64,000 nucleotides of DNA from assembly GCA_947626585.1 (NCBI GenBank), contig CANQSU010000001.1:11768-75767 (forward strand), written 5' to 3'. Source of the stretch: an uncultured Oscillospiraceae bacterium. GTDB lineage: Bacteria; Bacillota; Clostridia; Oscillospirales; Oscillospiraceae. How positions within the stretch are numbered: position 1 is the stretch's first letter; each line of letters starts with the position of its first letter. The translations under genes and the position numbers were made by a program. Under the pieces are notes generated by a model. The model searched no databases, was not told the origin of the DNA, and was given only the letters and a program-made list of their open reading frames with translations. Below, piece by piece: positions 2,692 to 43,626 of the stretch.

Positions 2692-3204
2692 TCACGCCTC
2701 CTCGCAGCCGTTTACGTCCGTGGCCTCAGGGGACATCCATATGGCGTCCATCAGGACGGCTGTGTCACTCATGGCGTTGGCCTGCTCCATGGCTTTGGAT
2801 TCCGAGGCGGCGTGCACGCGGAGCGTCCCGGCCATGGCCACGGTGACGTCGTAAGGCGTGCCGTTCTCGTTGGACGGTGCCGTGCTGCGCGCCCTGAGCC
2901 ATCCGAGGATCCGTGCGGGGAACACGCCGCTCTCGTTGGCGGCGGCGCAGGACTCGGATTTCAGGATTGTGTCCAGGAACTCGGCGTCGGGGCTGTTTGC
3001 GGGGATATGGAACAGCGCGCGGATCTGGTTCGCGGCGGCCGTCTGGATCTGGTAAAGTCCGCCCATGACGTTCTGCTTATCATTGCTTCCGTCCACTTCC
3101 AGGCCGATGCGCTGGAGCGTGTCGATCATCTGTTCGGCGTGGTAAAAGGACCTCCAGGCCTCCGTCGCGAGGTCCCTGGTGATCTTATCATCATAGATGC
3201 GCAT
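2692..3204 (-). CDS. hypothetical protein
   Basis: Track ORF 2692..3249 trimmed to the MRIYDD start behind a GAGGAGGG RBS. Confidence 0.55.
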   Translation of the reverse strand: MRIYDDKITRDLATEAWRSFYHAEQMIDTLQRIGLEVDGSNDKQNVMGGLYQIQTAAANQIRALFHIPANSPDAEFLDTILKSESCAAANESGVFPARILGWLRARSTAPSNENGTPYDVTVAMAGTLRVHAASESKAMEQANAMSDTAVLMDAIWMSPEATDVNGCEEA

Positions 3205-3226: not shown

Positions 3227-3979
3227 TCAGGTGTTGTCTTTCCTGGCAATGGGCTGCCAGAGGTTCAGCATTTTGCTGGAAAGCTCCAGGAGTTCCGCGG
3301 GGCGGACGAACTCCGTGTCGCCGACCATGTCAACGCGCCAGGGCTTCGAGAAGTCGACGATGGCGCCGGGGATCGAGACGACGCCCTGGACCTCATCATT
3401 CCAGCCGCGCCAGGTGAACGAGTTGGGGTCTCCCGGGTCGGGGACGACGACAAGTCTGCCGGGGTTGGCCTGGCAGAACTCGTCCAGCGTGTCCGCGTCC
3501 GTCGGTCCCTGGATGGACAGGGCCATCAGGACGTGCGCGGCGGGCCAGGAGCGGCGGATCGCGTCGCTGAAATAAGTCCCGTCCATGAGCTCCGGGTAGT
3601 TTTCCCTCACGGCGTCCGGGACGGCGCCGTTCCTGCGGAGCACGACGATCCCGGCGGTGCCGGCGTCGCCGACGGTGTTGATGATGGAGGTGTACGCCTC
3701 GGGAACGTTGATGGAGAGGTCCGCGATCTTCTCCGCAATGGCCTCCACGACCTGGTTGAACGGGGCCTGGCGCATGTACTGGATGTAGTCCGCGTCGGCG
3801 AGCTTCGTGTTCGCGGCTTTCTCATAGGCGGGGTCGTTGAAGTCGTCCCACGCCTCGCCGCAGTAAAATACGGGTTTCATGGCGTTCGCTTCGTCCTGAT
3901 CCGGCGTGGGGCCGATGGTGAGGGCCTGTGTTACAAGGCCAAGGGACGCGATGCTCTGTGTCACAATGTCGGTCTGCAT
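3227..3979 (-). CDS. hypothetical protein
   Basis: Track ORF 3227..4051 trimmed to the MQTDIV start behind an AAGGAG RBS. Confidence 0.55.
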   Translation of the reverse strand: MQTDIVTQSIASLGLVTQALTIGPTPDQDEANAMKPVFYCGEAWDDFNDPAYEKAANTKLADADYIQYMRQAPFNQVVEAIAEKIADLSINVPEAYTSIINTVGDAGTAGIVVLRRNGAVPDAVRENYPELMDGTYFSDAIRRSWPAAHVLMALSIQGPTDADTLDEFCQANPGRLVVVPDPGDPNSFTWRGWNDEVQGVVSIPGAIVDFSKPWRVDMVGDTEFVRPAELLELSSKMLNLWQPIARKDNT

Positions 3980-11582: not shown

Positions 11583-11993
11583 TTACTTGTCATATAAGCC
11601 CTGTTCCCAGAAATCGGCGAGGCCCCATTCATAAAACGGGCTGACGATGGCAGTCGTGCCGTCCTGCGAGACGAGTGTTTCACACCAGTTGTTCTTCAGG
11701 AGCATTTCAAGGCCGGCCCAGTTGGCATCCGGCGTTGATCTCAATACAACGGCCGGCACCGCCCCGAAGCCCTCCGCCATGGTCTTCGGTTCCTCCAGGG
11801 CGCAGAAATGCGTTTCCGGGTATTTTATCCCCAGATTGGACCGGCGCCACTGGCGGTTCACGAGCGGGAGCAGGAGGTCCCAGTACCGCTGTTCGAAGTC
11901 GTCCTCCGGGTCCCGGAGCACGGCCGTATGGACGCCGTACTGGGGGTGCGGCCACTGCGGGACCGAGCTTTGTGTTATCATAACATGATTCAT
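11583..11993 (-). CDS. hypothetical protein
   Basis: Track ORF 11583..12005 trimmed to ATG (MNHVM) behind an AAAGGGGG RBS. Confidence 0.5.
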   Translation of the reverse strand: MNHVMITQSSVPQWPHPQYGVHTAVLRDPEDDFEQRYWDLLLPLVNRQWRRSNLGIKYPETHFCALEEPKTMAEGFGAVPAVVLRSTPDANWAGLEMLLKNNWCETLVSQDGTTAIVSPFYEWGLADFWEQGLYDK

Positions 11994-21896: not shown

Positions 21897-22730
21897 TCAG
21901 GTCCTCGCGCGGGCCTCGAACTCCTCGTAGGTGTACGGTCCCTTGAGGACCTGCTGGTCGCGGCAGAATTTGCAGGAGCGCCTGCCGCAGCGGTGCGGGG
22001 CCTGGCGCACCTGGGCCATGGGCCGGGCGGTGAGGGACAGCTCGACGAACTCCAGGGCCTCGTTCAGCATCTCATCGGGGATCGTGACGACGCCGAAGTC
22101 GACGGGGTCCTCCTTGGTGATGTAGGCGATGTTGAACGGCAGGACGAGGCCGGTGTTCTGGCGGACGATCTCCCGGTAGATGGCGCCCTGGATGTCGTAG
22201 CCGTAGTTTTCGACAAACGTGACGCGTCGCTTCAGGAACTCGTTGAACTCCTCCTGGGCGGATTTTACGTACTTGAGGTCCGTGATCTGCACGCCGGGCT
22301 GGTAGTCGTCCATCTTGATCTTGAACGGGTGGCCGGCGATCTCGCCGGTCATGACGGCCTGGTGCTGCCCGGAGAGATAGGACATGAACACCGGGTCGCG
22401 CTTGGCGCGGGCGATGGCCTTGTCCGCGTCCTTGACGAACTGGTAGAAGCCCTTGCCGGATTTGAGCTTCAGGTCGGACTCGTTCTCCTCGACGAACTTC
22501 TTGAACGCGTCGTCGCTTTCGAACGCGGCGTCGACGTAGCCGCCGATGAGCAGGGCCTCGGTGCGCTCCTTCTCGCCGAGCAGGGCGGCCGCCTCGCAGG
22601 GATACGGCGCCGCCGGCATCCCGTAGACGGACTTGAACAGGGAATTGGACAGGTAGAGGACGTTTGCCTTTTCGGAGTAATAGTTCTCCGGCGTGAGCAC
22701 GAACGCCTCCTGGGCCTGTGTTTCGGGCAT
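21897..22730 (-). CDS. PD-(D/E)xK exonuclease (RecE/DUF3799-like)
   Basis: Track ORF 21897..22883 trimmed to MPETQ behind AAGGAGG. ITDLKYVKS and YDIQGAIYREI give the D..(D/E)xK ... QxxxY core. C-terminal Cys cluster HRCGRRSCKFC. Confidence 0.68.
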   Translation of the reverse strand: MPETQAQEAFVLTPENYYSEKANVLYLSNSLFKSVYGMPAAPYPCEAAALLGEKERTEALLIGGYVDAAFESDDAFKKFVEENESDLKLKSGKGFYQFVKDADKAIARAKRDPVFMSYLSGQHQAVMTGEIAGHPFKIKMDDYQPGVQITDLKYVKSAQEEFNEFLKRRVTFVENYGYDIQGAIYREIVRQNTGLVLPFNIAYITKEDPVDFGVVTIPDEMLNEALEFVELSLTARPMAQVRQAPHRCGRRSCKFCRDQQVLKGPYTYEEFEARART

Positions 22731-22746
22731 GGTGCTGCCTCCTTTC

Positions 22747-23430
22747 TCAGTCGTGGCTGCGCGGGACGCAGTCACGCGTTTCATAGTCGTAATGGTAATC
22801 GCCGGAATACGCGCATCCGTCGCAGTCGTTTGAAATGTCGCCGCCGAGCGGGCAGTCGTGGCCGTCGGTACCGTTGTACACATTCATGCCGACGATGGCG
22901 TCCGGGTACATGGTCTGGTCCTCCTTGGGAGGCTCGGGTTCCCGGTGGCCGCGCTTGTTGTCCATGACATAGTAGGCGTCGAGCCAGTTTTGGATATCAT
23001 AGTGCCCGTGGCAGAGCCCGCCCGTCGACAGGTTCATGGTCCACACGGTGTAGGTGCCGTCGTTTTTTACGGCAAGGACGGTCCAGAGGTACCAGTCGTC
23101 AGGGTGCTCGGACTGTTTCTCCACGCGGATGAGCGCGGGGCTGTACGCGGGGCTGACGGCGGCGGCCAGCTTCCTGGCCATGGACAGGGCGGACATCACC
23201 TGGGCCTCCCAGGGGAGCGCCGTAAAGGGTCCTTTTTCAAATCTTTCGGGTACGGGGCCGGGCAGGAGCTTCTGCAGGTCGTCCGGGTCAAGCCCGAGGG
23301 CTTCGAAGCGTTCCAGGCGCTTCAGGTACGTGACGAGCTCGCCCTCGGTGGTGCAGAAGTTGCCGTATCGGGACATGAGCTCGACATGGCCCGCGTTCAG
23401 CTCCCGGATCGCGGTCTTGAGAGGTACCAT
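22747..23430 (-). CDS. hypothetical protein with Cys/His-rich C-terminus
   Basis: Track ORF with a TAGGAGG RBS. No family recognised. Confidence 0.55.
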   Translation of the reverse strand: MVPLKTAIRELNAGHVELMSRYGNFCTTEGELVTYLKRLERFEALGLDPDDLQKLLPGPVPERFEKGPFTALPWEAQVMSALSMARKLAAAVSPAYSPALIRVEKQSEHPDDWYLWTVLAVKNDGTYTVWTMNLSTGGLCHGHYDIQNWLDAYYVMDNKRGHREPEPPKEDQTMYPDAIVGMNVYNGTDGHDCPLGGDISNDCDGCAYSGDYHYDYETRDCVPRSHD

Positions 23431-23498
23431 ATCTTCTTTTCCTCCTAAAATGTGGCCGGGGCACCCGGTCTTATATCACCAGGCGCCCCGGGCGTTGG

Positions 23499-24503
23499 TC
23501 AGGGCTGGGACGCGCGGTAGGCCTCGAAGTCCTTGAGCAGCTTCTCGCGGGTGCAGAACACGCACTCGGTGAACCGGGCACGGGTCAGCGCCACATAGGC
23601 GATCCGCTTGTTCTCATCGGACGAGGAGTAGGTGTTGCGTCCCGCCTCGGTGTTGATGAAGCAGGCGACATGGTCGTACTCCAGGCCCTTGACGCCGTGC
23701 ACGGTGCAGACCACGATGTCTGCGGACTGCTCCTTGAGCTTGGCGTTCTTGGCGTCCATGACCCGCTGGAGCAGGGTGTTCTTCTCGGTCTGCATGTCCA
23801 GCAGGGACAGCTGGAGCCGGCGGATTTCCTGGTCGCGCTTGTTGGGGTCGTTGAGGGCCGCCACGATCTTCGGGCCGTCGGCCATCTGCTCGGCCAGCCA
23901 GTCCAGGGTGATCTTGTTCACCGTCGGGCCGTTCTGGTTGTACCGGTTGCCGCCGCGGGCCGCAGCATTGATGCGGATGTTCTCGTCATGGACGGCGCGC
24001 TCGAACTCGCCCCAGTCCTTCACGGGGTTCGGGAGGAACTTGGGCAGGTTCTGGCCGATGGCAGACAGGATCACGATGTCGTTCCGGCGCTGGGACGTGA
24101 TGTTCTGGACGTTGTACTGGGACCCGTAGCGGGTGTGCAGGTAGTCGTAGAGCTTCAGGACGTCCTGCCCGGAGCGGGCGATGACGGCGATGCTCTGGCC
24201 GTGGCCGAGGCGGAGCTCCAGCCAGTCATCCAGGATCTTCATCGTGTCGGGATCCGTGACTTTGTCGTAGGTGTTCATGGTCACGGTGGCGTCCACCGCC
24301 TGCTTGGTGATCTGCATGACCTGGTTGGCCCGCAGGGTGGTCTTATGGGTGGACATGGTGCTGGACATCAGGTTCGCCACGTCCAGGATGATCTGGGTGG
24401 AACGGTGGTTGATGCTGAGGTCGAAGGTGTTGAACAGCTTGGTCAGGTTATTCAGGATGCGGGGGTCCGCGTCCCGGAATTCATACAACGTCTGGGCACA
24501 ATC
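23499..24503 (-). CDS. UvrD/PcrA-like SF1 helicase, exon 2
   Basis: In-frame extension of track ORF 23499..24488 to the predicted 3' splice site. Remainder of motif III DCAQTLYEFRDADP, motif IV INHRST, VCTVHGVKGLEYDHV, AYVALTRAR. Confidence 0.8.
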   Translation of the reverse strand, partial: DCAQTLYEFRDADPRILNNLTKLFNTFDLSINHRSTQIILDVANLMSSTMSTHKTTLRANQVMQITKQAVDATVTMNTYDKVTDPDTMKILDDWLELRLGHGQSIAVIARSGQDVLKLYDYLHTRYGSQYNVQNITSQRRNDIVILSAIGQNLPKFLPNPVKDWGEFERAVHDENIRINAAARGGNRYNQNGPTVNKITLDWLAEQMADGPKIVAALNDPNKRDQEIRRLQLSLLDMQTEKNTLLQRVMDAKNAKLKEQSADIVVCTVHGVKGLEYDHVACFINTEAGRNTYSSSDENKRIAYVALTRARFTECVFCTREKLLKDFEAYRASQP

Positions 24504-25210
24504 CGTTTTGACGCTTGTCTGGAGAAGAACTGTATGAATTTCTCATGTTTTGTATCGAGATAAACAGAAGCGTTTTTGTACAGGTAATCGTACAGGAGTT
24601 TGATGTCAGCTTTTTTACCGTACCGGAGAGATGACGTTTTGGGCGACTTTTTGTACCCTTTCATCGCCACGGTTGGCGTCGTTCCAGCTTCATGTGACAA
24701 CAGGTCTTTGAATTCCCGCATGAGTTTTTTGTCGCCAGTGAGCGACCATTCCTGACGCTGGATGTCGGATCTGGCTGTTTTCTGGACATATACGGACAGG
24801 CACCCGTCTCCGTCAAAATACCCTCTCACAAAGTGGTTCATCAGGTTTTTTCGGATTTTCGGAATGTGTGTTCGTATGCTTTTTGGCCCATATCCGAGTT
24901 TTTGCAGCGCTTCGCATAATGGACGGCAGTTGATGTCCAACTGGGCGACCGTGTGCCCGCTTTCATGGTACACTGGAACGATTTCATTGTCGGCAGATAT
25001 GGCTTCGCGAAACCGTTCGAGATGTTCGCGCTCATCCCATTTTTGGGTGACGCGAATGCGGTTCGGTCCGCTGGCACGTTTTGCCGTTTTGCTGATACTG
25101 CCGTCGGCCCAGAGGAACCCAAGCCAATAGGCTTTTTCCTGTGTGTCGATCTTGTCAAAGTAGTGCTCGTTGATGCTGTGTGTTCTGTTTATCTGCGTTG
25201 AGGTTTGCAT
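24452..25210 (-). CDS. LAGLIDADG homing endonuclease (intron-encoded)
   Basis: Track ORF 24452..25288 trimmed to MQTSTQ behind GGAGGAAAG. Two LAGLIDADG motifs, YWLGFLWADGSI and FVRGYFDGDGCL. The last ~17 codons overrun the predicted 3' splice site in another frame. Confidence 0.88.
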   Translation of the reverse strand: MQTSTQINRTHSINEHYFDKIDTQEKAYWLGFLWADGSISKTAKRASGPNRIRVTQKWDEREHLERFREAISADNEIVPVYHESGHTVAQLDINCRPLCEALQKLGYGPKSIRTHIPKIRKNLMNHFVRGYFDGDGCLSVYVQKTARSDIQRQEWSLTGDKKLMREFKDLLSHEAGTTPTVAMKGYKKSPKTSSLRYGKKADIKLLYDYLYKNASVYLDTKHEKFIQFFSRQASKRIVPRRCMNSGTRTPAS

Positions 25211-25676
25211 GACTTTCCTCCGTTCTCCATGTTGCTGACTATACCATCTTGTATGTCTTATTTTACCGAAAAATATCGGTTTTGTCAAGACCTACAAGCC
25301 CTTCGTTTTGCTTTGACAGGCTGACCCAGGCCTAATCTCAGCCTGGTGCTGACCCGATCATGCTTTCGGGCGCTACTCTACTTGCTTCGCGGCGGATTTT
25401 CATCCGTCCTTATTTTCAATCCTGCCGGGTTTCCGGCTCTTATGGATTTATAGCTTTCGACAGTCGATGAACCTTGTTCCGTCGTCTTTACGTTACGGCA
25501 CCTGGCTGCGTTTTCGTGATTGCCGCCGCTTTTTCCGGGCTTTTACCGTCCCCATGGCGTTATCCATGGTGCTGCCTGTTCTGTTTCCAGAACAGCGCGG
25601 TGCCGGGTGCGTTTTACATGCTCTCACATGTCGGTTTCCCGCAGTTAGTAGGGTTTAAGGTGGGCAATTATGCCTT
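24504..25676 (-). mobile_element. group I intron interrupting the UvrD-like helicase gene
   Basis: Helicase motif III is split between the two ORFs. The 5' exon end GUGGGU can pair with intron GCCCAC (25660-25665), giving a U-G pair at the splice site. The intron ends in G. About 400 nt of ORF-free sequence is rich in GAAA-capped hairpins. A homing endonuclease gene lies inside. Confidence 0.72.
25260..25288 (-). promoter_or_regulatory. promoter candidate inside the intron, upstream of the homing endonuclease ORF
   Basis: Minus strand reads TTGACA, a 17-nt spacer, then TAAAAT. Confidence 0.5.
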
Positions 25677-27320
25677 ACCCACGCAATAGATACTGATGTC
25701 GTTCAACATTGCCATTTTTAACATCGTCAGAAACTCCAAGCGGTTGGAGTCCTGGCTCTCGTCAATGACGATGTGCTCGATGTTGGGCTTCAGGACGGAC
25801 AGCTGGGTGTGGAACACGATGGGGTCCAGTTCCAGCGACGTGCAGTGCAGCATCTTCAGGATGCTCAGCAGGTTTGCCGCCTCAGGGTTGAGGCCGGTGT
25901 CCAGCATGTTGAGCAGCTGGGGCTGGCACGTATCGATGTTGTCGCAGTAGTTGACGAACTGCTGCAGGGCCTTGACGGTGCTGGTTTGCAGGATGTTCGC
26001 GTTCACCAGGTCGTCCATGCGGATCTTGAGCTTCTGCACAAAATCCGAATGGGCCACGATGTCCACGCGGGTGCCGCTGCCGTCGTCCAGGATCACATTG
26101 ACAAACGAATGGGTGAACTCGGCGATGGTGCTGGACTTGCAGTCCCGGAAGTTCTTTTTGATGTGCCCCGCCGCGGCCTTGGTGAAGCTCAGCACGAAGG
26201 TCTGCTTCATGTCGCAGCCGTTCTCCTCCATGAAGGCCAGACGGTGCATGATACAGGAGGACTTCCCGGTGCCGGCGCCGGCCGCCACGATGGTGATGCG
26301 GGAGGGCGATTCGATGGCCGCGATCTGCTCGGTGGTCAGGGTGATGGCCTTGGTGGTGTACTTTTTGCCCACGAGCTCCGGGATCTGGGCCGTCATGGCG
26401 CCCTGCATGTTGCTCAGGGTGTCGGCCAGGGACAGGGACATATTGGCATTCTTGAGCTGGGTGGCCTCGTCGCGGGTCCGGGCGTTGATGACGTCGATGA
26501 CGTCCGTCTGGTACAGGGCGAAGGGCAGGTTGACCAGGTTCAGGATCCGGTTGGCGTAGGCCAGCACCGGATAGCCGGCCGCGGACGCGGCCTGCAGGGC
26601 CTTCTTCAGGTCGCCCTGGGTCTTGATCAGCGCCAGTTCGGACATGATCAGGTCGTACATGCTGCGGGCGTTGTCCGCCGCCGCCAGGTTGGCGGAGTCG
26701 TCGGTCTTCACCGAGTAGCCGTTTTTGACCATGAAGGCGTTGATCTTGTTAAACGCGTTCGTGTACATGTCCAGGATCGGGTCCTTGGGACGCGGGCCGT
26801 TCACGTACAGGCCGTCGAACTTCTCGATCCAGCTGTTGGTGGGCATGCCCTCCTCGGCGACGATCAGGGTGTAATAGCCAAGGACGTAGTTGGTTGCGGC
26901 CTTGTAGACGTAGATCCTGTTCAGGAACAGGCGGGACCGGTAGGTCACGACCTGGCCGTCGGACGGGCGCTCGAACGTGGCAAAATGGTCCGTCATGGCG
27001 CAGAGCGGGGCAGGGACGCCGTTCTGGGCCGTCGCGTAGCCGGAGCAGAGCGAGATGTCCTGCCAGAGGGTGGTGTAGTTCCTGAGGTCGTCATGGACGT
27101 GGTGGGCGCGGTTCTCGCACTCGTACCGGTCGGCCATCAGGATGGAAACGGCGTTCTGGGACACGACGTCGCTGCCCCCGGCGAGGAGCGTCGAGCGCAA
27201 CAGCCCCTGGTTCACGCCGTTCCCGGTCAAAACAGAGTTATAGTCCTTGGGGCTGTACTGGGGCCCCGCGGCGGCCTGCCTGGCAACGGCAGTACCGGCA
27301 TCTTCCAAGATGATCGGCAT
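25677..27320 (-). CDS. UvrD/PcrA-like SF1 helicase, exon 1 (with a long N-terminal extension)
   Basis: Walker A AAGAGTGKSS and motif II VIDESQD. The track ORF 25668..27320 ends ...ISIYCVGKA*, reading 2 codons plus the stop into the intron. Confidence 0.8.
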
Positions 27321-27333
27321 ATATTCATTCCTC

Positions 27334-27636
27334 CTATAATTTTCTCGCGATTCGGTCGATTGCCGCCTGGAACGGCGTAAAGTCGGTCAGCGCCTCGTCG
27401 GCGTCCTGAAATTCTTCGAAACAGGGCCAGATCTCGCTGCCGAATCCGGATTCAAGTTCCCATTCGCGGAACAGGTCTTTCGGGTCGGCCTGGCCATCGG
27501 CTTCCTCGCGGTATTCCAGGACCGCGGTAACCAGGTCTTCCAGAGTATAGCCATGGGACATGAGCCAAAGCATGCGGAAGATCTCATACTTCGCATGCTC
27601 GTATCTGGCCCGTCCCGGCTTTTTGCTATCAGGCAT
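27334..27636 (-). CDS. hypothetical acidic protein
   Basis: Track ORF 27334..27651 trimmed to MPDSK behind GGAGG. Its ATG shares one nucleotide with the UDG stop (TGATG). Confidence 0.5.
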   Translation of the reverse strand: MPDSKKPGRARYEHAKYEIFRMLWLMSHGYTLEDLVTAVLEYREEADGQADPKDLFREWELESGFGSEIWPCFEEFQDADEALTDFTPFQAAIDRIARKL

Positions 27637-28316
27637 CAGGGGAGCCTCCAATCAACGGGCGACACGCCCATCATGGCCAGCATCCGGTTGGCCTTGGAAA
27701 AGGGCTTCGAGCCGAAGAAACCCTTGTCGGCGGAGAACGGCGACGGATGCGGTGACGTGATCAGGATCTTGTTCCGCTTCGGGTCCTGGACCGGCAGGCC
27801 GGCCAGTGCGTCGCGGGCGCTGCGGCCCCAGGCGATGAACACCACGGGCTTTTCCAGGCTTGCCGCGACCTTGAAGATCTGGTGGGTGAACCTGTCCCAG
27901 CCCCAGTTTGCGTGCGAGTTGCTCTGCCCGCGCTCGACCGTGAGGGTCGTGTTCAGGAGCAGCACGCCCTGGCGCGCCCAGGGGAGTAGGGATGTGGTCG
28001 TGGGGTACGGGCAGCCGGTGTCGGAGACCAGCTCCTTGAAGATATTCTGGAGGCTGGGCGGGGCCGGCGTCCCGTTTGTGACCGAGAAGCAGAGGCCCTC
28101 GGCCTGCCCCGGGTTGATGTACGGGTCCTGGCCGACTAGGACGACTTTTAACTTTTTCACGGGCGTCTCGTCAAGGGCCCGGAAGATCTTGTCCTGGGGC
28201 GGGTAGATCGTGTGCCCCTGGTGGCGGAGCGATTCCGCCTTGCCTGTGAGGGCGATGGCCAGTTCCAGGGTATCCTTGTCGAGATACTCGAACCAGTTTT
28301 TCGGCATTGTTCTCAT
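27636..28316 (-). CDS. ung: uracil-DNA glycosylase, family 1
   Basis: VLVGQDPYINPGQAEGLCFS (GQDPYH-type motif), LLLNTTLTV and SPHPSPFSA (HPSPLS motif). Confidence 0.9.
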   Translation of the reverse strand: MRTMPKNWFEYLDKDTLELAIALTGKAESLRHQGHTIYPPQDKIFRALDETPVKKLKVVLVGQDPYINPGQAEGLCFSVTNGTPAPPSLQNIFKELVSDTGCPYPTTTSLLPWARQGVLLLNTTLTVERGQSNSHANWGWDRFTHQIFKVAASLEKPVVFIAWGRSARDALAGLPVQDPKRNKILITSPHPSPFSADKGFFGSKPFSKANRMLAMMGVSPVDWRLP

Positions 28317-28591
28317 CTCTTTTCTGTGTTTGTGATCGTTGTTTTGTTCCAGCGTTCGATGGCCTGCCTGTCGGCTTTTGAAACGGCGCTTTCCGGGTCC
28401 GTGCGGTCCAGGTCCGGGTAGCCGGGTTCAACCGTGACCGTAAAATTTACCTTTGGGCCGCGTGCGCAGCAGGAGCGGCAGCGGACTTGGGAAATGTAGT
28501 TCTGCTCTGTGCCACGCAGCCTGGTAGCGTGAGAGTCGACATATGTCTTGTCAGAGCCACAGAACCAGCATTCATGGATGCCGTTTTTCAC
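28313..28591 (-). CDS. Lar-family restriction-alleviation-like zinc-ribbon protein
   Basis: CWFCG ... CRSCCARGP ... QAIERWNK reproduces the Lar-family pattern (CxxC ... CxxC ... AIxxWN). Confidence 0.58.
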   Translation of the reverse strand: MKNGIHECWFCGSDKTYVDSHATRLRGTEQNYISQVRCRSCCARGPKVNFTVTVEPGYPDLDRTDPESAVSKADRQAIERWNKTTITNTEKR

Positions 28592-28594
28592 ATC

Positions 28595-28792
28595 TCAGCC
28601 CTCCCACGGCCCGTCGAAGCTGTCGTCGATCGGGTACTGCCGGCCGCAGTTCTCGCATAACAGATGTGACACGGCTCTGCGGTGGCGACCTGTCTTATAT
28701 CGTATGCCCATGCTGGTCTGGGCGTACTCGAATTCCGTGAAGAAAATCGGAACGAGCGGGGTGCCGCATTTACATTCGCCGTATTTGTTCAT
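28595..28792 (-). CDS. small zinc-ribbon protein
   Basis: Track ORF 28595..29032 trimmed to MNKYGECKCG. Cys pairs CKC and CENC. The upstream part of the track ORF is Arg-rich shadow sequence. Confidence 0.42.
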   Translation of the reverse strand: MNKYGECKCGTPLVPIFFTEFEYAQTSMGIRYKTGRHRRAVSHLLCENCGRQYPIDDSFDGPWEG

Positions 28793-28809
28793 GTTGGCTG
28801 TCCTTTCCG

Positions 28810-29112
28810 TCACCAGTTGATCTTGAGTTTTTCCTCGTCGACCTTTGGCGCCTTTTCCTTTTCGTAATAGGGACAGTTGAATGCCTTGGCCATCAGGATG
28901 GCTTCCGGCTTTTCGTTGTTCTTGTACTGCATGCAGTTCTGAAAGTGATAGGGGATCCGGTGTTCGCAGGTGAAGCACTGGGAGTGCACGATCCGGCTTA
29001 CCTGTTCGTTTAGGCCGTCGTCGATTGCCCATTGCTCCTGGAGCGATAATTGATGTACGCCGGGGCGAAGCCGGTTCACGAGTCTTTTTAGAAATCCTGG
29101 TTTCTTCGTCAT
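28810..29112 (-). CDS. small Cys/His-rich protein
   Basis: Track ORF 28810..29181 trimmed to MTKKPG behind AAAGGAAAA. Contains CFTCEH and NCMQY ... NCPYY. Confidence 0.45.
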   Translation of the reverse strand: MTKKPGFLKRLVNRLRPGVHQLSLQEQWAIDDGLNEQVSRIVHSQCFTCEHRIPYHFQNCMQYKNNEKPEAILMAKAFNCPYYEKEKAPKVDEEKLKINW

Positions 29113-41081: not shown

Positions 41082-41110
41082 TTGACAACCGCCATGTTTT
41101 ATTTTATTAT
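41082..41110 (+). promoter_or_regulatory. consensus-like promoter for the plus-strand arm
   Basis: TTGACA (41082-41087), a 17-nt spacer, then TATTAT (41105-41110). Confidence 0.6.
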
Positions 41111-42926: not shown

Positions 42927-43004
42927 CTTCCGGCAATAAAAAGTCCGGCGGGGGCAGCCCAAAAACAGGCCTCCGCATAGGCAAACTCCCCCGGTGGCCG
43001 TTTT

Positions 43005-43470
43005 GAGAACGTTACATTTTTTCGATGTTGCAAGTTGTTCGTTTTTGTGTCAAAATCGCAAAAAGTGCAAGAATCATTACAGTTTTTCTTGCGGCCGAGT
43101 CGAAAATGGTACTGCATTTTTTTCGTGTTTTTCGAAAGCCTGAAAATGGAAACGTTACAAGAAAGTGTAGAAATTTCTACAGTTTTTGGCATCCATGTTG
43201 CTAACTCCGTTACAGAGCGTTACACAAAAAATCGCAAAAACTGCAAAAATCTTTGCATAAATTTTTTTGTAACGTTTGTAACGTTAAAATTAGTATTATA
43301 TACGCGCGTGAGAAAACGCCATACTAAGGGTTTGAAAAATGAACGTTACAAACGTTACAAAAAAATTTCTGCTATAATTCTTACATTTTTTCGAAAATTT
43401 TTGTAACAGCGTGTAACGTGAGAACGTTACAAACTTGAAAAGTGCAAGAATTGTTACATTTTCTTGTAAC
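43005..43470. repeat. AT-rich iteron field (AACGTTAC / GTTACA repeats); probable replication origin or centromere
   Basis: At least 13 exact GTTACA/TGTAAC hexamers, mostly as (G/A)AACGTTACA and several in tandem (43268-43282, 43344-43359, 43402-43431). Also longer direct repeats AAAAGTGCAAGAAT..TTACA (43061 and 43438) and AAAATCGCAAAAA(G/C)TGCAA (43052 and 43227), and the palindrome GTAGAAATTTCTAC. Confidence 0.8.
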
Positions 43471-43626
43471 GTTCTCAAACGGCGTGTTTGAAAACCCTCG
43501 AAAAAATGCAATGCGTGTATTTGAGGCCGTGCGGGACGCGCTGTTTCGCGGACTCCCCACGTGGCTTTGTACCGGCGGCCGGATGCGGTTCCTGCCGCTC
43601 CCAGAGTGTGAAAGCGCGAAACACCC

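Follow-up and report, generated by a model that had tools for sequence, protein, structure and literature searches.

We propose a model in which a phage helicase gene is interrupted, inside a conserved motif, by a mobile RNA element. The DNA under study is a stretch of 64,000 nucleotides (nt), referred to as the window, that corresponds to positions 11,768 to 75,767 of the forward strand of contig CANQSU010000001.1 (GenBank assembly GCA_947626585.1, an uncultured Oscillospiraceae bacterium). An insert of 1173 nt separates the two halves of a gene for a UvrD-like superfamily 1 (SF1) helicase, and this is very probably a LAGLIDADG-encoding mobile group I intron, lodged in motif III of the phage enzyme. 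The exact boundaries of the insert, its covarying structure, its kinship with Rfam group I introns, purifying selection on its open reading frame (ORF) and its patchy distribution over the helicase tree are established here. The element is of an ordinary selfish type; it is new only as a member of its family and does not overturn current understanding. This region had been read before from its letters alone, and all the coordinates and strings given in that original prediction are present on the minus strand. The gene-level features and the splice-site pairings are as follows.

25677..27320, minus strand: helicase exon 1, 548 codons; N-terminal domain, motifs I and II and the first half of motif III, ending ...IYCVG
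24504..25676, minus strand: predicted group I intron, 1173 nt, starting AAGGCAUAAUUGCCCAC and ending ...GCGUCAAAACG
24452..25221, minus strand: putative homing-endonuclease gene in the P9 loop; ribosome-binding site GGAGG at 25221..25217, ATG at 25210, 252 codons, stop codon ending at 24452
23499..24503, minus strand: helicase exon 2, 334 codons plus stop; starts DCAQTLYEFRDADP, the second half of motif III, followed by UvrD_C
25677..25682, minus strand: P1 5' strand GUGGGU, the last six nt of exon 1, with U25677 in a U.G wobble at the 5' splice site
25660..25671, minus strand: internal guide sequence AUAAUU|GCCCAC, in which the P10 strand (25671..25666) adjoins the P1 3' strand (25665..25660)
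24504 and 24503..24498, minus strand: terminal G of the intron and P10 exon strand GAUUGU

The first half of the helicase lies in a reading frame (27320..25668, minus strand) that terminates ...ISIYCVGKA*, and the second in a frame (24488..23499, minus strand) whose in-frame upstream extension reads DCAQTLYEFRDADP. Joining T25677 to G24503 keeps the frame (1644 + 1005 nt) and gives a product of 882 amino acids (aa) that reads ...ISIYCVG|DCAQTLYEFRDADP across the joint; the predicted ligated RNA is ...AUUGCGUGGGU|GAUUGUGCCCAG and the predicted junction peptide ...IYCVGDCAQTLYEFR. Exon 1 matches the Pfam families UvrD-helicase (E 7.6e-14) and AAA_19, and exon 2 matches UvrD_C (E 7.2e-16). The UvrD/Rep-like motifs I, II and III and the C-terminal domain come together in one polypeptide only once the exons are joined, and the motif thereby restored, VGDCAQTLYEFRDA, agrees exactly with that of contiguous homologues. 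When the joined protein was used as query, about 25 clusters of 885-973 aa aligned over 100% of it at 59-73% identity, and about 15 clusters of about 550 aa matched only its first 62%. In the alignment the full-length homologues run gapless over the junction, as ...IYIVGDCAQTLYEFRDADP or ...ISIYIVGDCAQTLYEFRDADPRILNNLTKLF (for example …IYIVG|DCAQTLYEFRDADP), and all the short clusters terminate ...VGKA*, as the window does. Judged by these matches, the host gene is a phage UvrD-like SF1 helicase broken within motif III. The original prediction had placed the break at motif III and had suggested a comparison with intron-less homologues; that comparison fixed the insertion point, the homologues being contiguous at this exact residue.

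The limits of the insert were set by the intron-less homologues, by 12 copies at the same site and by the P1 and P10 pairings. Its G+C fraction (0.46-0.53) is lower than that of the flanks (about 0.62). The GCCCAC of the guide sequence occupies nt 12-17 of the intron (25665..25660) and pairs with the exon end GUGGGU, with the wobble formed by U25677 and G25665. Six of six P1 positions are paired in 16/16 copies, that is, in the 12 and in four introns of a sister clade described below; the pairing GUGGGU/GCCCAC, with its U.G at the splice site, is invariant across the 12, and one G-C pair of the window is G.U in the sister clade. P10 (AUAAUU/GAUUGU) is likewise paired at 6/6 positions in all 16. 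It changes on both sides at three positions, from A-U to G-C in L013 and L020, and from U.G to G-C and A-U to C-G in the L030 clade, whose P10 sequence thus differs yet stays paired. The last intron nucleotide is G in every one of the 16 copies. P1, P10 and the terminal G follow the splice-site rules of group I introns (PMC3984707), and the pairing, the wobble and the final G are as the original prediction had described them. Its insert length of 1173 nt also stands; the ORF-free RNA upstream of the ORF, put at about 400 nt, measures 466 nt 5' of ATG 25210 and includes CUGUUCUG-GAAA-CAGAACAG.

The 12 distinct copies on the fetched contigs all lie between GTGGGT and GATTGY. Eight are 1172-1189 nt long and carry the ORF; four (L009, L013, L018, L020) are 501-518 nt long and do not. 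The latter retain the first ~440 nt, the ribosome-binding site and ATG, and the last ~50 nt, so that these two segments are the ones under selection at the RNA level. From 11 copies RNAalifold predicted 118 pairs, 46 of them with compensatory change. Helices that clashed with a group I core were replaced, and the final structure comprises 120 pairs, including the P7 pseudoknot and P10. In this structure 97.5% of cells are paired and 50 pairs have changed on both sides. Sliding the 3' partners by 1-3 columns left 4-8 compensatory pairs, and 0/500 shuffles reached the observed level. The elements of the core are listed here in 5' to 3' order.

25651..25653, minus strand: P3 5' strand CCC, then J3/4 UACUAAC; invariant, placed by the Rfam alignment of L089
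25638..25643, minus strand: P element UGCGGG (P4 5' strand), then J4/5 AAA; matches the Rfam consensus AAUUGCGGgAAA
25527..25634, minus strand: P5 (CCG/CGG) with a large extension, consisting of a hairpin at 25631..25616 and a three-way arm at 25611..25527 with a GAAA tetraloop
25504..25521, minus strand: Q element AAUC[ACGAAAA]CGCAGCC, formed by J5/4, the P4 3' strand and the start of P6
25471..25506, minus strand: P6/P6a hairpin; 5/12 pairs with compensatory change
25460..25473, minus strand: R element GGUUCAUCGACUGU (J6/7 and P7 5' strand GACUGU); matches the Rfam consensus GGUUCAaAGACUA
25317..25454, minus strand: peripheral domain between P7 and P3', with a P7.1 three-way structure (25454..25372), P7.2 (25370..25353) and a "P7.3" hairpin (25351..25317)
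25299..25301, minus strand: P3 3' strand GGG, immediately before P8
25248..25298, minus strand: P8, a stem of 12 base pairs with a 27-nt loop holding promoter-like hexamers; 8/12 pairs with compensatory change
25237..25247, minus strand: S element AUGGUAUAGUC (J8/7 and P7 3' strand AUAGUC); matches the Rfam consensus GAUAUAGUC with 2 extra nt
25223..25229, minus strand: P9 5' strand UGGAGAA; 7/7 paired in 12/12 copies
24520..24526, minus strand: P9 3' strand UUCUCCA, which shuts the loop containing the ORF

The helix order, P3, P4, P5 (extended), P4', P6, P7, P7.1-7.3, P3', P8, P7' and P9, is canonical; P2 is absent, as the group I family allows (PMC3984707). The hairpin-rich insert of the original prediction is thereby given a group I core with strong covariation. 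Most pairs of the P5 domain show compensatory change (in P5 itself C-G becomes G-C in five copies), the P7.1-P7.3 helices all covary, and P9 of L020 carries three compensatory changes (CGGGAAA/UUUCCCG). In P4 (UGCG/CGCA) the U-A pair is lost to U.U in 5 copies, and P8 of the ORF-less copies is replaced by short, unrelated hairpins. P7 (GACUGU/AUAGUC) forms standard pairs in 12/12 copies and varies only in L001 and L017, where G.U becomes A-U by a change on one side. The conserved elements read AACUGCGGGAAACC (including UGCGGGAAA) in the window against the Rfam consensus AAUUGCGGgAAAcC for P, AAUC[ACGAAAA]CGCAGCCA against AAuCCGCAGCCAA for Q, AGGUUCAUCGACU (including GGUUCAUCGACU) against AgGUUCAaAGACUA for R, and AAGAUGGUAUAGUC (including UAUAGUC) against AAGAUAUAGUC for S, with 2 extra nt in J8/7. 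The Q element has a 7-nt insertion relative to the canonical AAUCCGCAGCC, which the sister clade carries uninterrupted. Helices of the P7.1 and P7.2 type between P7 and P3' define subgroup IA and are present here; on this alignment the architecture is IA-like, with no P2 and with a P7.1/P7.2-type domain between P7 and P3'. CCC/GGG was taken as P3 because the Rfam alignment of L089 puts its P3' UGAUGGGC, which corresponds to CGAAGGGC in the window, directly before P8. An alternative P3, ACCCUAC/GUAGAGU (6/7 pairs), would put three hairpins between P3' and P8 and was rejected. The RNAalifold helices pairing UGC.GG with GUCAGCA, GCG with CGC and UCGA with UCGA conflict with P4, P5 and P7 and were the ones replaced. 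As a separate observation, L001 and L017, which are not sister copies, share joint changes from GACUGU to GACUAU in the P7 5' strand and from G to A in J8/7, two nt 5' of UAUAGUC (alignment columns 248 and ~467; window 25462 and ~25243); the two co-changing positions form no standard pair with each other.

Several results weigh against the assignment to group I. The Rfam model Intron_gpI (RF00028) gave no match on the window, either at the gathering score over its whole length or at E up to 10 over 24350-25800 and 25195-25695, where only chance-level matches to other families appeared (dinG, snoTBR5, an RNase P fragment); nor did it match the ORF-less copies at E up to 1. The 12 copies are kin, so the cell counts exaggerate how many independent events there were. 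P3 is made up of three invariant G-C pairs, with one more C-G possible across a two-base mismatch, and since P3 and P7 are invariant or nearly so, the pseudoknot helices rest on position and homology, not on covariation. A covariance model that we built from the trimmed core of the 12 copies (R1; 158 positions, 37 pairs) recognizes the T4 introns td and nrdB weakly, at E 0.15 and 0.3, as the top 2 of 26 matches with filters off, and all R1 E-values are rough because the calibration was short. Lastly, splicing, promoter activity and cleavage with homing are inferred only, and a search for RNA sequencing runs holding the sequence found none.

Why would a group I intron escape the family model? 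We attribute the direct miss to the 7-nt insertion in Q, the longer J8/7, the ~140-nt P7.1-7.3 domain and the 100-nt P5 extension. T4 td and nrdB, used as controls, score 40.3 and 35.7 bits, both under the gathering score of 50, and the LAGLIDADG-intron loci of phages MSA6, 0305phi8-36 and cr116_1 gave no match. MSA6 is uninformative as a control because its ORF splits the core, and the T4 introns were used in its place. Megablast and blastn searches with the region and the core found no match in 50,697 phage records. An exact 30-nt R-element pattern had 0 matches in viral contigs and matched 2 rabbit-gut contigs from metagenome-assembled genomes; a degenerate pattern, GGTTCANNGACTNTCGAAAG, was required to reach the sister clade, and with it we fetched 80 IMG/VR loci. 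Within the window, the intron is the only match of R1. Among the 80 loci the model finds the sister introns L030, L089, L064 and L094 at 77-84 bits (E 1e-20 to 1e-22). Rfam Intron_gpI matches those same four over the full length of the model at 42.8-48.1 bits (E 4e-9 to 1.6e-7; L089 alone, E 1.5e-9), scores that equal or exceed those of the T4 controls. R1 also matches introns that lie above the Rfam gathering score (L026, L045, L068 and L063; E 1e-7 to 1e-4), for instance L026 6214-6342 at E 9e-8, which Rfam scores at 94.4 bits. It further gives E 0.0012 at the cr116_1 site directly 3' of the LAGLIDADG gene and E 0.076 for the annotated MSA6 rec intron. The Rfam search that had been suggested alongside the original prediction thus fails on the window and succeeds on the sister introns at the same site. 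Group I membership here is a matter of splice-site rules, covariation and a two-step homology chain, not of a direct Rfam match.

Two other explanations of the split gene have to be weighed. The helicase might be naturally split into two polypeptides, with the insert a free-standing endonuclease cassette that does not splice; the insertion of mobE splits nrdA in this manner in Aeromonas phage Aeh1. The annotation speaks for such an arrangement, since gene callers report two truncated helicase genes at every intron-bearing locus fetched (11 gene-called contigs), as do the lack of RNA support for the ligated exons after the fruitless search for RNA runs and the failure of Rfam on the window copy. 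The break, however, interrupts motif III itself, and the two halves can be joined in frame with residue-level precision; exon 2 begins with neither an ATG nor a ribosome-binding site, and the called start of the second half varies from locus to locus. The 466 nt 5' of the ORF and the last 36 nt covary as RNA helices, P1 and P10 included, of which a cassette needs none, and the site also retains copies of 424-518 nt that have no ORF. We regard this explanation as extremely improbable. A decayed intron that no longer splices and leaves the helicase a pseudogene is scarcely easier to credit and we judge it highly improbable. It would accommodate the odd features of the element (the 7-nt Q insertion, the 2 extra nt in J8/7, the weak P3, the large peripheral insertion) and a window score under anything that Rfam reports. 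Yet these features are common to all 12 copies and therefore old and tolerated, 12 intron-bearing lineages that are 30-40% apart in protein have kept both exons intact and conserved, and helices are maintained throughout by compensatory changes. Other classes of intervening sequence were rejected on their own grounds. An intein does not fit a stop two codons past the junction (...VGKA*) and an ORF in a frame different from that of both exons. Group II introns are marked by GUGYG...AY boundaries, a six-domain structure and a reverse-transcriptase ORF; this intron starts AAGGC, ends ACG and encodes a LAGLIDADG protein, and there were no Rfam group II matches. Translational bypass was ruled out on sequence grounds.

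The mobile group I intron that we favor carries an ORF (25210..24452) of 252 aa with two LAGLIDADG motifs, AYWLGFLWADGS and VRGYFDGDGC (HFVRGYFDGDGC), each with an acidic residue. The protein matches Pfam LAGLIDADG_3 above cutoff (E 1.7e-9), LAGLIDADG_1 slightly below cutoff and PHROG 4645 at E 1.8e-42, in agreement with the double-motif endonuclease of the original prediction. Its product is predicted to be a monomeric double-motif LAGLIDADG homing endonuclease, with cleavage likewise a prediction. The mechanically listed start, TTG 25288, falls within a -35 hexamer; the true start is almost certainly ATG 25210, which is preceded by GGAGG. The ORF is 29-35% identical to annotated intron-encoded or 'mobile intron' endonucleases of crAss-like phages, Bacillus phage 0305phi8-36 and Staphylococcus Kayvirus phages, and unannotated stretches in Lak megaphage records reach 33% identity. 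ORF searches of viral and metagenome contigs returned distant relatives only (27-36% identity, unusable for covariation), and a sequence search against PDB chains found none below E 0.28. The eight ORF copies share 61-93% protein identity with a ratio of non-synonymous to synonymous substitutions of 0.08-0.23, and the endonuclease protein is therefore under purifying selection. As had been noted originally, the last 17 codons and the stop (52 nt) extend into exon 2 in a different frame. In L011, L014, L017 and L019 the ORF stop (TAA or TGA) lies 2 nt 5' of the 3' splice site, and in the window, L001, L003 and L015 that codon reads AAA and the ORF enters exon 2 by 52 nt; the L011 form of the protein is 234 aa long. 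Because sister copies stop before the splice site, we interpret the overlap as a by-product of stop-codon loss in one lineage. By inspection of 25217-25229 and 24517-24526, the P9 3' strand UUCUCC(A) can partner either the P9 5' strand UGGAGAA or, 3 nt on, the ribosome-binding site GGAGGA, and P9 formation may affect access of the ribosome to the ORF.

How would such an element operate in the phage? We envisage that the helicase pre-mRNA folds into a ribozyme whose guide sequence AUAAUUGCCCAC would pair both with the end of exon 1, in P1 with its U.G, and with the start of exon 2, in P10. An external guanosine bound in P7 would attack after U25677. The terminal G (24504) would then replace this guanosine, and ligation of the exons would yield the 882-aa helicase with an intact VGDCAQTLYEFRDA. 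The endonuclease mRNA would begin inside the ribozyme core and be unable to splice. In co-infecting relatives whose helicase allele has no intron, its product would cut that allele at the VG|D coding site, and repair off the intron-bearing allele would copy the intron in, that is, homing.

The proposed start of the endonuclease mRNA is given by a promoter-like site within P8.

25260..25288, minus strand: sigma-70-type promoter-like site; TTGACA at 25288..25283, 17-nt spacer, TAAAAT at 25265..25260, predicted start at about 25253

The TTGACA-17-TAAAAT that the original prediction had assigned to the ORF is found as described, with 11/12 matches to consensus, in the P8 terminal loop, and no other such site occurs in 22000..29000. 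It is present in 8/8 ORF-bearing copies and in 0/4 ORF-less ones. The eight keep TTGAC/TTAAC, the 17-nt spacer and TAAAAT, and the 5' half of the spacer varies; ORF-less L018 retains the -35 part only, and the other ORF-less copies have the short P8 hairpins already mentioned. Eight sites in the whole window match at 11/12 positions or better, each with exactly 17 nt of spacer, where chance would give 0.1; the other seven are at 41082, 41141, 43627, 49262, 55135, 58082 and 62420. Given these eight sites, the phage appears to rely on this promoter type. As a side observation, strict-consensus sites for a primary sigma factor fit a Firmicute-type host, and one related contig is binned with Oscillospiraceae; the binning is unreliable, because another related contig is binned with Muribaculaceae.

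We conclude that the endonuclease is probably transcribed from its own sigma-70-type promoter in the P8 loop. Promoters inside their introns drive the intron endonucleases of T4 (PMC2988022). A transcript from about 25253 would lack P1 through the P8 5' strand and therefore could not splice. A competing account of the P8-loop string holds it to be an RNA element, either a platform for maturase binding or a tertiary contact, with the ORF translated from the pre-mRNA or the excised intron. The string does sit in an RNA loop of a catalytic-domain helix, the AUUCGG part of the spacer is also conserved, some LAGLIDADG proteins are maturases, with a bacterial example (PMC3984707), and in the sister clade (L030, L064) a homologous ORF is maintained with no such insert in P8. 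Conservation is nevertheless confined to exactly two hexamers at a 17-nt spacing in 8/8 copies, with the 5' half of the spacer free and no covariation; seven further near-consensus sites of the same spacing exceed the 0.1 expected, and the T4 precedent points the same way. The RNA-element account is accordingly doubtful in our eyes, though it retains some weight. Taking promoter and architecture together, we give even chances to a broader proposal: that the promoter in L8 and the ORF in L9 form a two-piece cassette interleaved with the ribozyme and gained or lost together, that endonuclease expression is fully uncoupled from that of the helicase, and that the clade is a structural variant of IA missed by covariance models. 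If this holds, P8', J8/7, P7' and P9 would serve as the 5' leader of the endonuclease mRNA, and the IA variant would be marked by the ~140-nt P7.1-7.3 domain, the 7-nt Q insertion and the absence of P2.

The distribution of the intron bears on its mobility. An intron-less allele, L021, reads ATCGTGGGC|GACTGCGCGCAGACC (also written ...ATCGTGGGC|GACTGCGCGCAG and ...ATCTACATCGTGGGCGACTGCGCGCAGACCCTG). In a neighbour-joining tree built from the helicase N-terminal part, alleles with and without the intron intermingle, the pattern expected from repeated gain or precise loss. Identity to the intron-less allele at third codon positions drops to its minimum within ten codons of the junction on either side (0.62 and 0.40) and is mostly 0.6-0.9 farther out, with one intron-less sequence compared; this fits co-conversion, along with the intron, of a distinct exon context compatible with P1 and P10. 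The sister introns lie on IMG/VR contigs (L030 4905-5965; L064, minus strand; L089 5613-6036; L094, minus strand). L030 and L064 are 1061 nt long with a homologous LAGLIDADG ORF; L089 and L094 are 424-425 nt long and ORF-less. They occupy the same motif-III site, ...LFIVG|DASQTLYEFRSANPKALN, in a distant helicase clade: their exon-2 start DASQTLYEFRSANPKALN resembles the distant homologue P0060. As the nearest full-length stand-ins for the two clades, P0060 and P0001, the latter related to the window helicase, are only about 25% identical in protein. By sequence, then, the intron family comprises at least 16 sequenced copies in two helicase clades at one site, helicase motif III. The window sequence occurs in rabbit-gut metagenomes, and DNA contigs of the source metagenome span both junctions in the intron-bearing form only, with no intron-less joint. 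A 364-nt contig from the source rabbit-gut runs has just 31 nt in common with the window (25436-25466, in the R element and P7.1) and on both sides departs into sequence that is related yet different, which we read as a second, more divergent intron of the family in the same sample. The same helicase family is invaded at motif I as well as at motif III: P0060 (1254 aa) has an insert of about 340 aa (residues ~349-689) with a LAGLIDADG_3 domain between AGTGKA and THNSS of Walker A/motif I, presumably an intein, in addition to the introns of its relatives.

Comparison with known introns places the window clade closest to its sisters. Both share the insertion point ...IVG|D..QTLYEFR, the P3, P, R and P7.1 sequences GUUAAACCCUACUAA.UGCGGGAAA, GGUUCAUCGACU.UCGAAAG and GCAAGUAGAGUAGC, and a LAGLIDADG ORF in L9, and both clades have ORF-less derivatives. 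The sisters, in contrast, have the canonical AAUCCGCAGCC and GAAGAUAUAGUC, lack the P7.3 hairpin and the P8 promoter insert, and are detectable by Rfam. The T4 introns td and nrdB resemble the window element as introns of the self-splicing group I class in phage DNA-metabolism genes (splicing in the window being our prediction), as carriers of a P7.1/P7.2 domain between P7 and P3' in the Rfam alignment, of an endonuclease ORF in a peripheral loop and of intron-internal promoters (PMC2988022), and as elements patchily distributed among related phages. Their enzymes, however, are of the GIY-YIG or HNH type whereas that of the window is LAGLIDADG, their core is contiguous after the ORF and found by Rfam whereas the window core is missed, and the R1 likeness between the two is weak. 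Unlike them, the window intron has its ORF in L9 and its putative promoter in a separate loop, L8, with the P8', J8/7, P7' and P9 strands between, and has no P2. The LAGLIDADG proteins of Kayvirus MSA6 (I-MsaII, rec intron) and Bacillus phage 0305phi8-36 (DNA polymerase III alpha intron) are 29-31% identical to the window ORF, and these introns too interrupt phage replication or recombination genes, although the host genes differ. The MSA6 intron shares the R element GGUUCAACGACUAUCGAAAAG; its ORF lies between R and S, unlike that of the window, which follows P7', and its R1 match is marginal. The closest database matches of the window endonuclease, at 33-35% identity, are the 'mobile intron protein' of crAss-like phages (cr116_1 and others) and the Lak megaphage stretches. 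Unlike the window element, that of cr116_1 lies between exonuclease and anaerobic ribonucleotide reductase genes, and its ORF precedes the core. At L023 2666-2822 (cr116_1, MT774389.1 28806-28962) a full-length R1 match sits directly downstream of the 'mobile intron protein' gene; no intron is annotated there in the record, and Rfam finds none at the site.

What makes the element of interest is its invisibility to Rfam, the putative P8-loop promoter that comes and goes with the ORF and the use of one target site across distant helicases. Recognizing the intron restores one 882-aa replication or repair helicase that is otherwise annotated as two truncated genes, as it is in about 15 protein clusters in all. 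The window clade is a concrete false negative of the Rfam group I model, with a sister clade at the same site that the model detects, and the 16 aligned covarying copies could seed a better model for introns of gut phages. The occupation of one site in two clades, together with the motif-I insert, is an illustration of homing elements following the DNA that is most conserved in replication genes. As a new LAGLIDADG enzyme whose natural target is long and defined, the predicted endonuclease is also a candidate rare-cutting nuclease.

The helicase gene is surrounded by genes for an AAA+ ATPase, an LPD24 protein, a PD-(D/E)XK exonuclease, a D5-type primase, a DNA polymerase and a probable uracil-DNA glycosylase-like protein, and from its predicted products this neighbourhood is a phage replication module. 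Elsewhere in the window, 42980-43500 has the lowest G+C content (0.33) and is dense in copies of GTTACA/TGTAACG in direct and inverted orientation, as in AACGTTACAAACGTTACA. The stretch separates divergent gene blocks, with the near-consensus promoters 41082(+), 41141(-) and 43627(+) adjacent, and could be an origin of replication or an array of regulator-binding sites. Three of the IMG/VR contigs carry Rfam-confirmed group I introns nearly back to back (L045 1124-3611, L065 1640-2767 and L026 3683-8763). L045 has six matches (1124-1403, 1421-1687, 1708-1997, 2259-2534, 2850-3120 and 3361-3611), some of them only about 20 nt apart, L065 has three group I matches within 1.1 kb, and L026 has at least 6.

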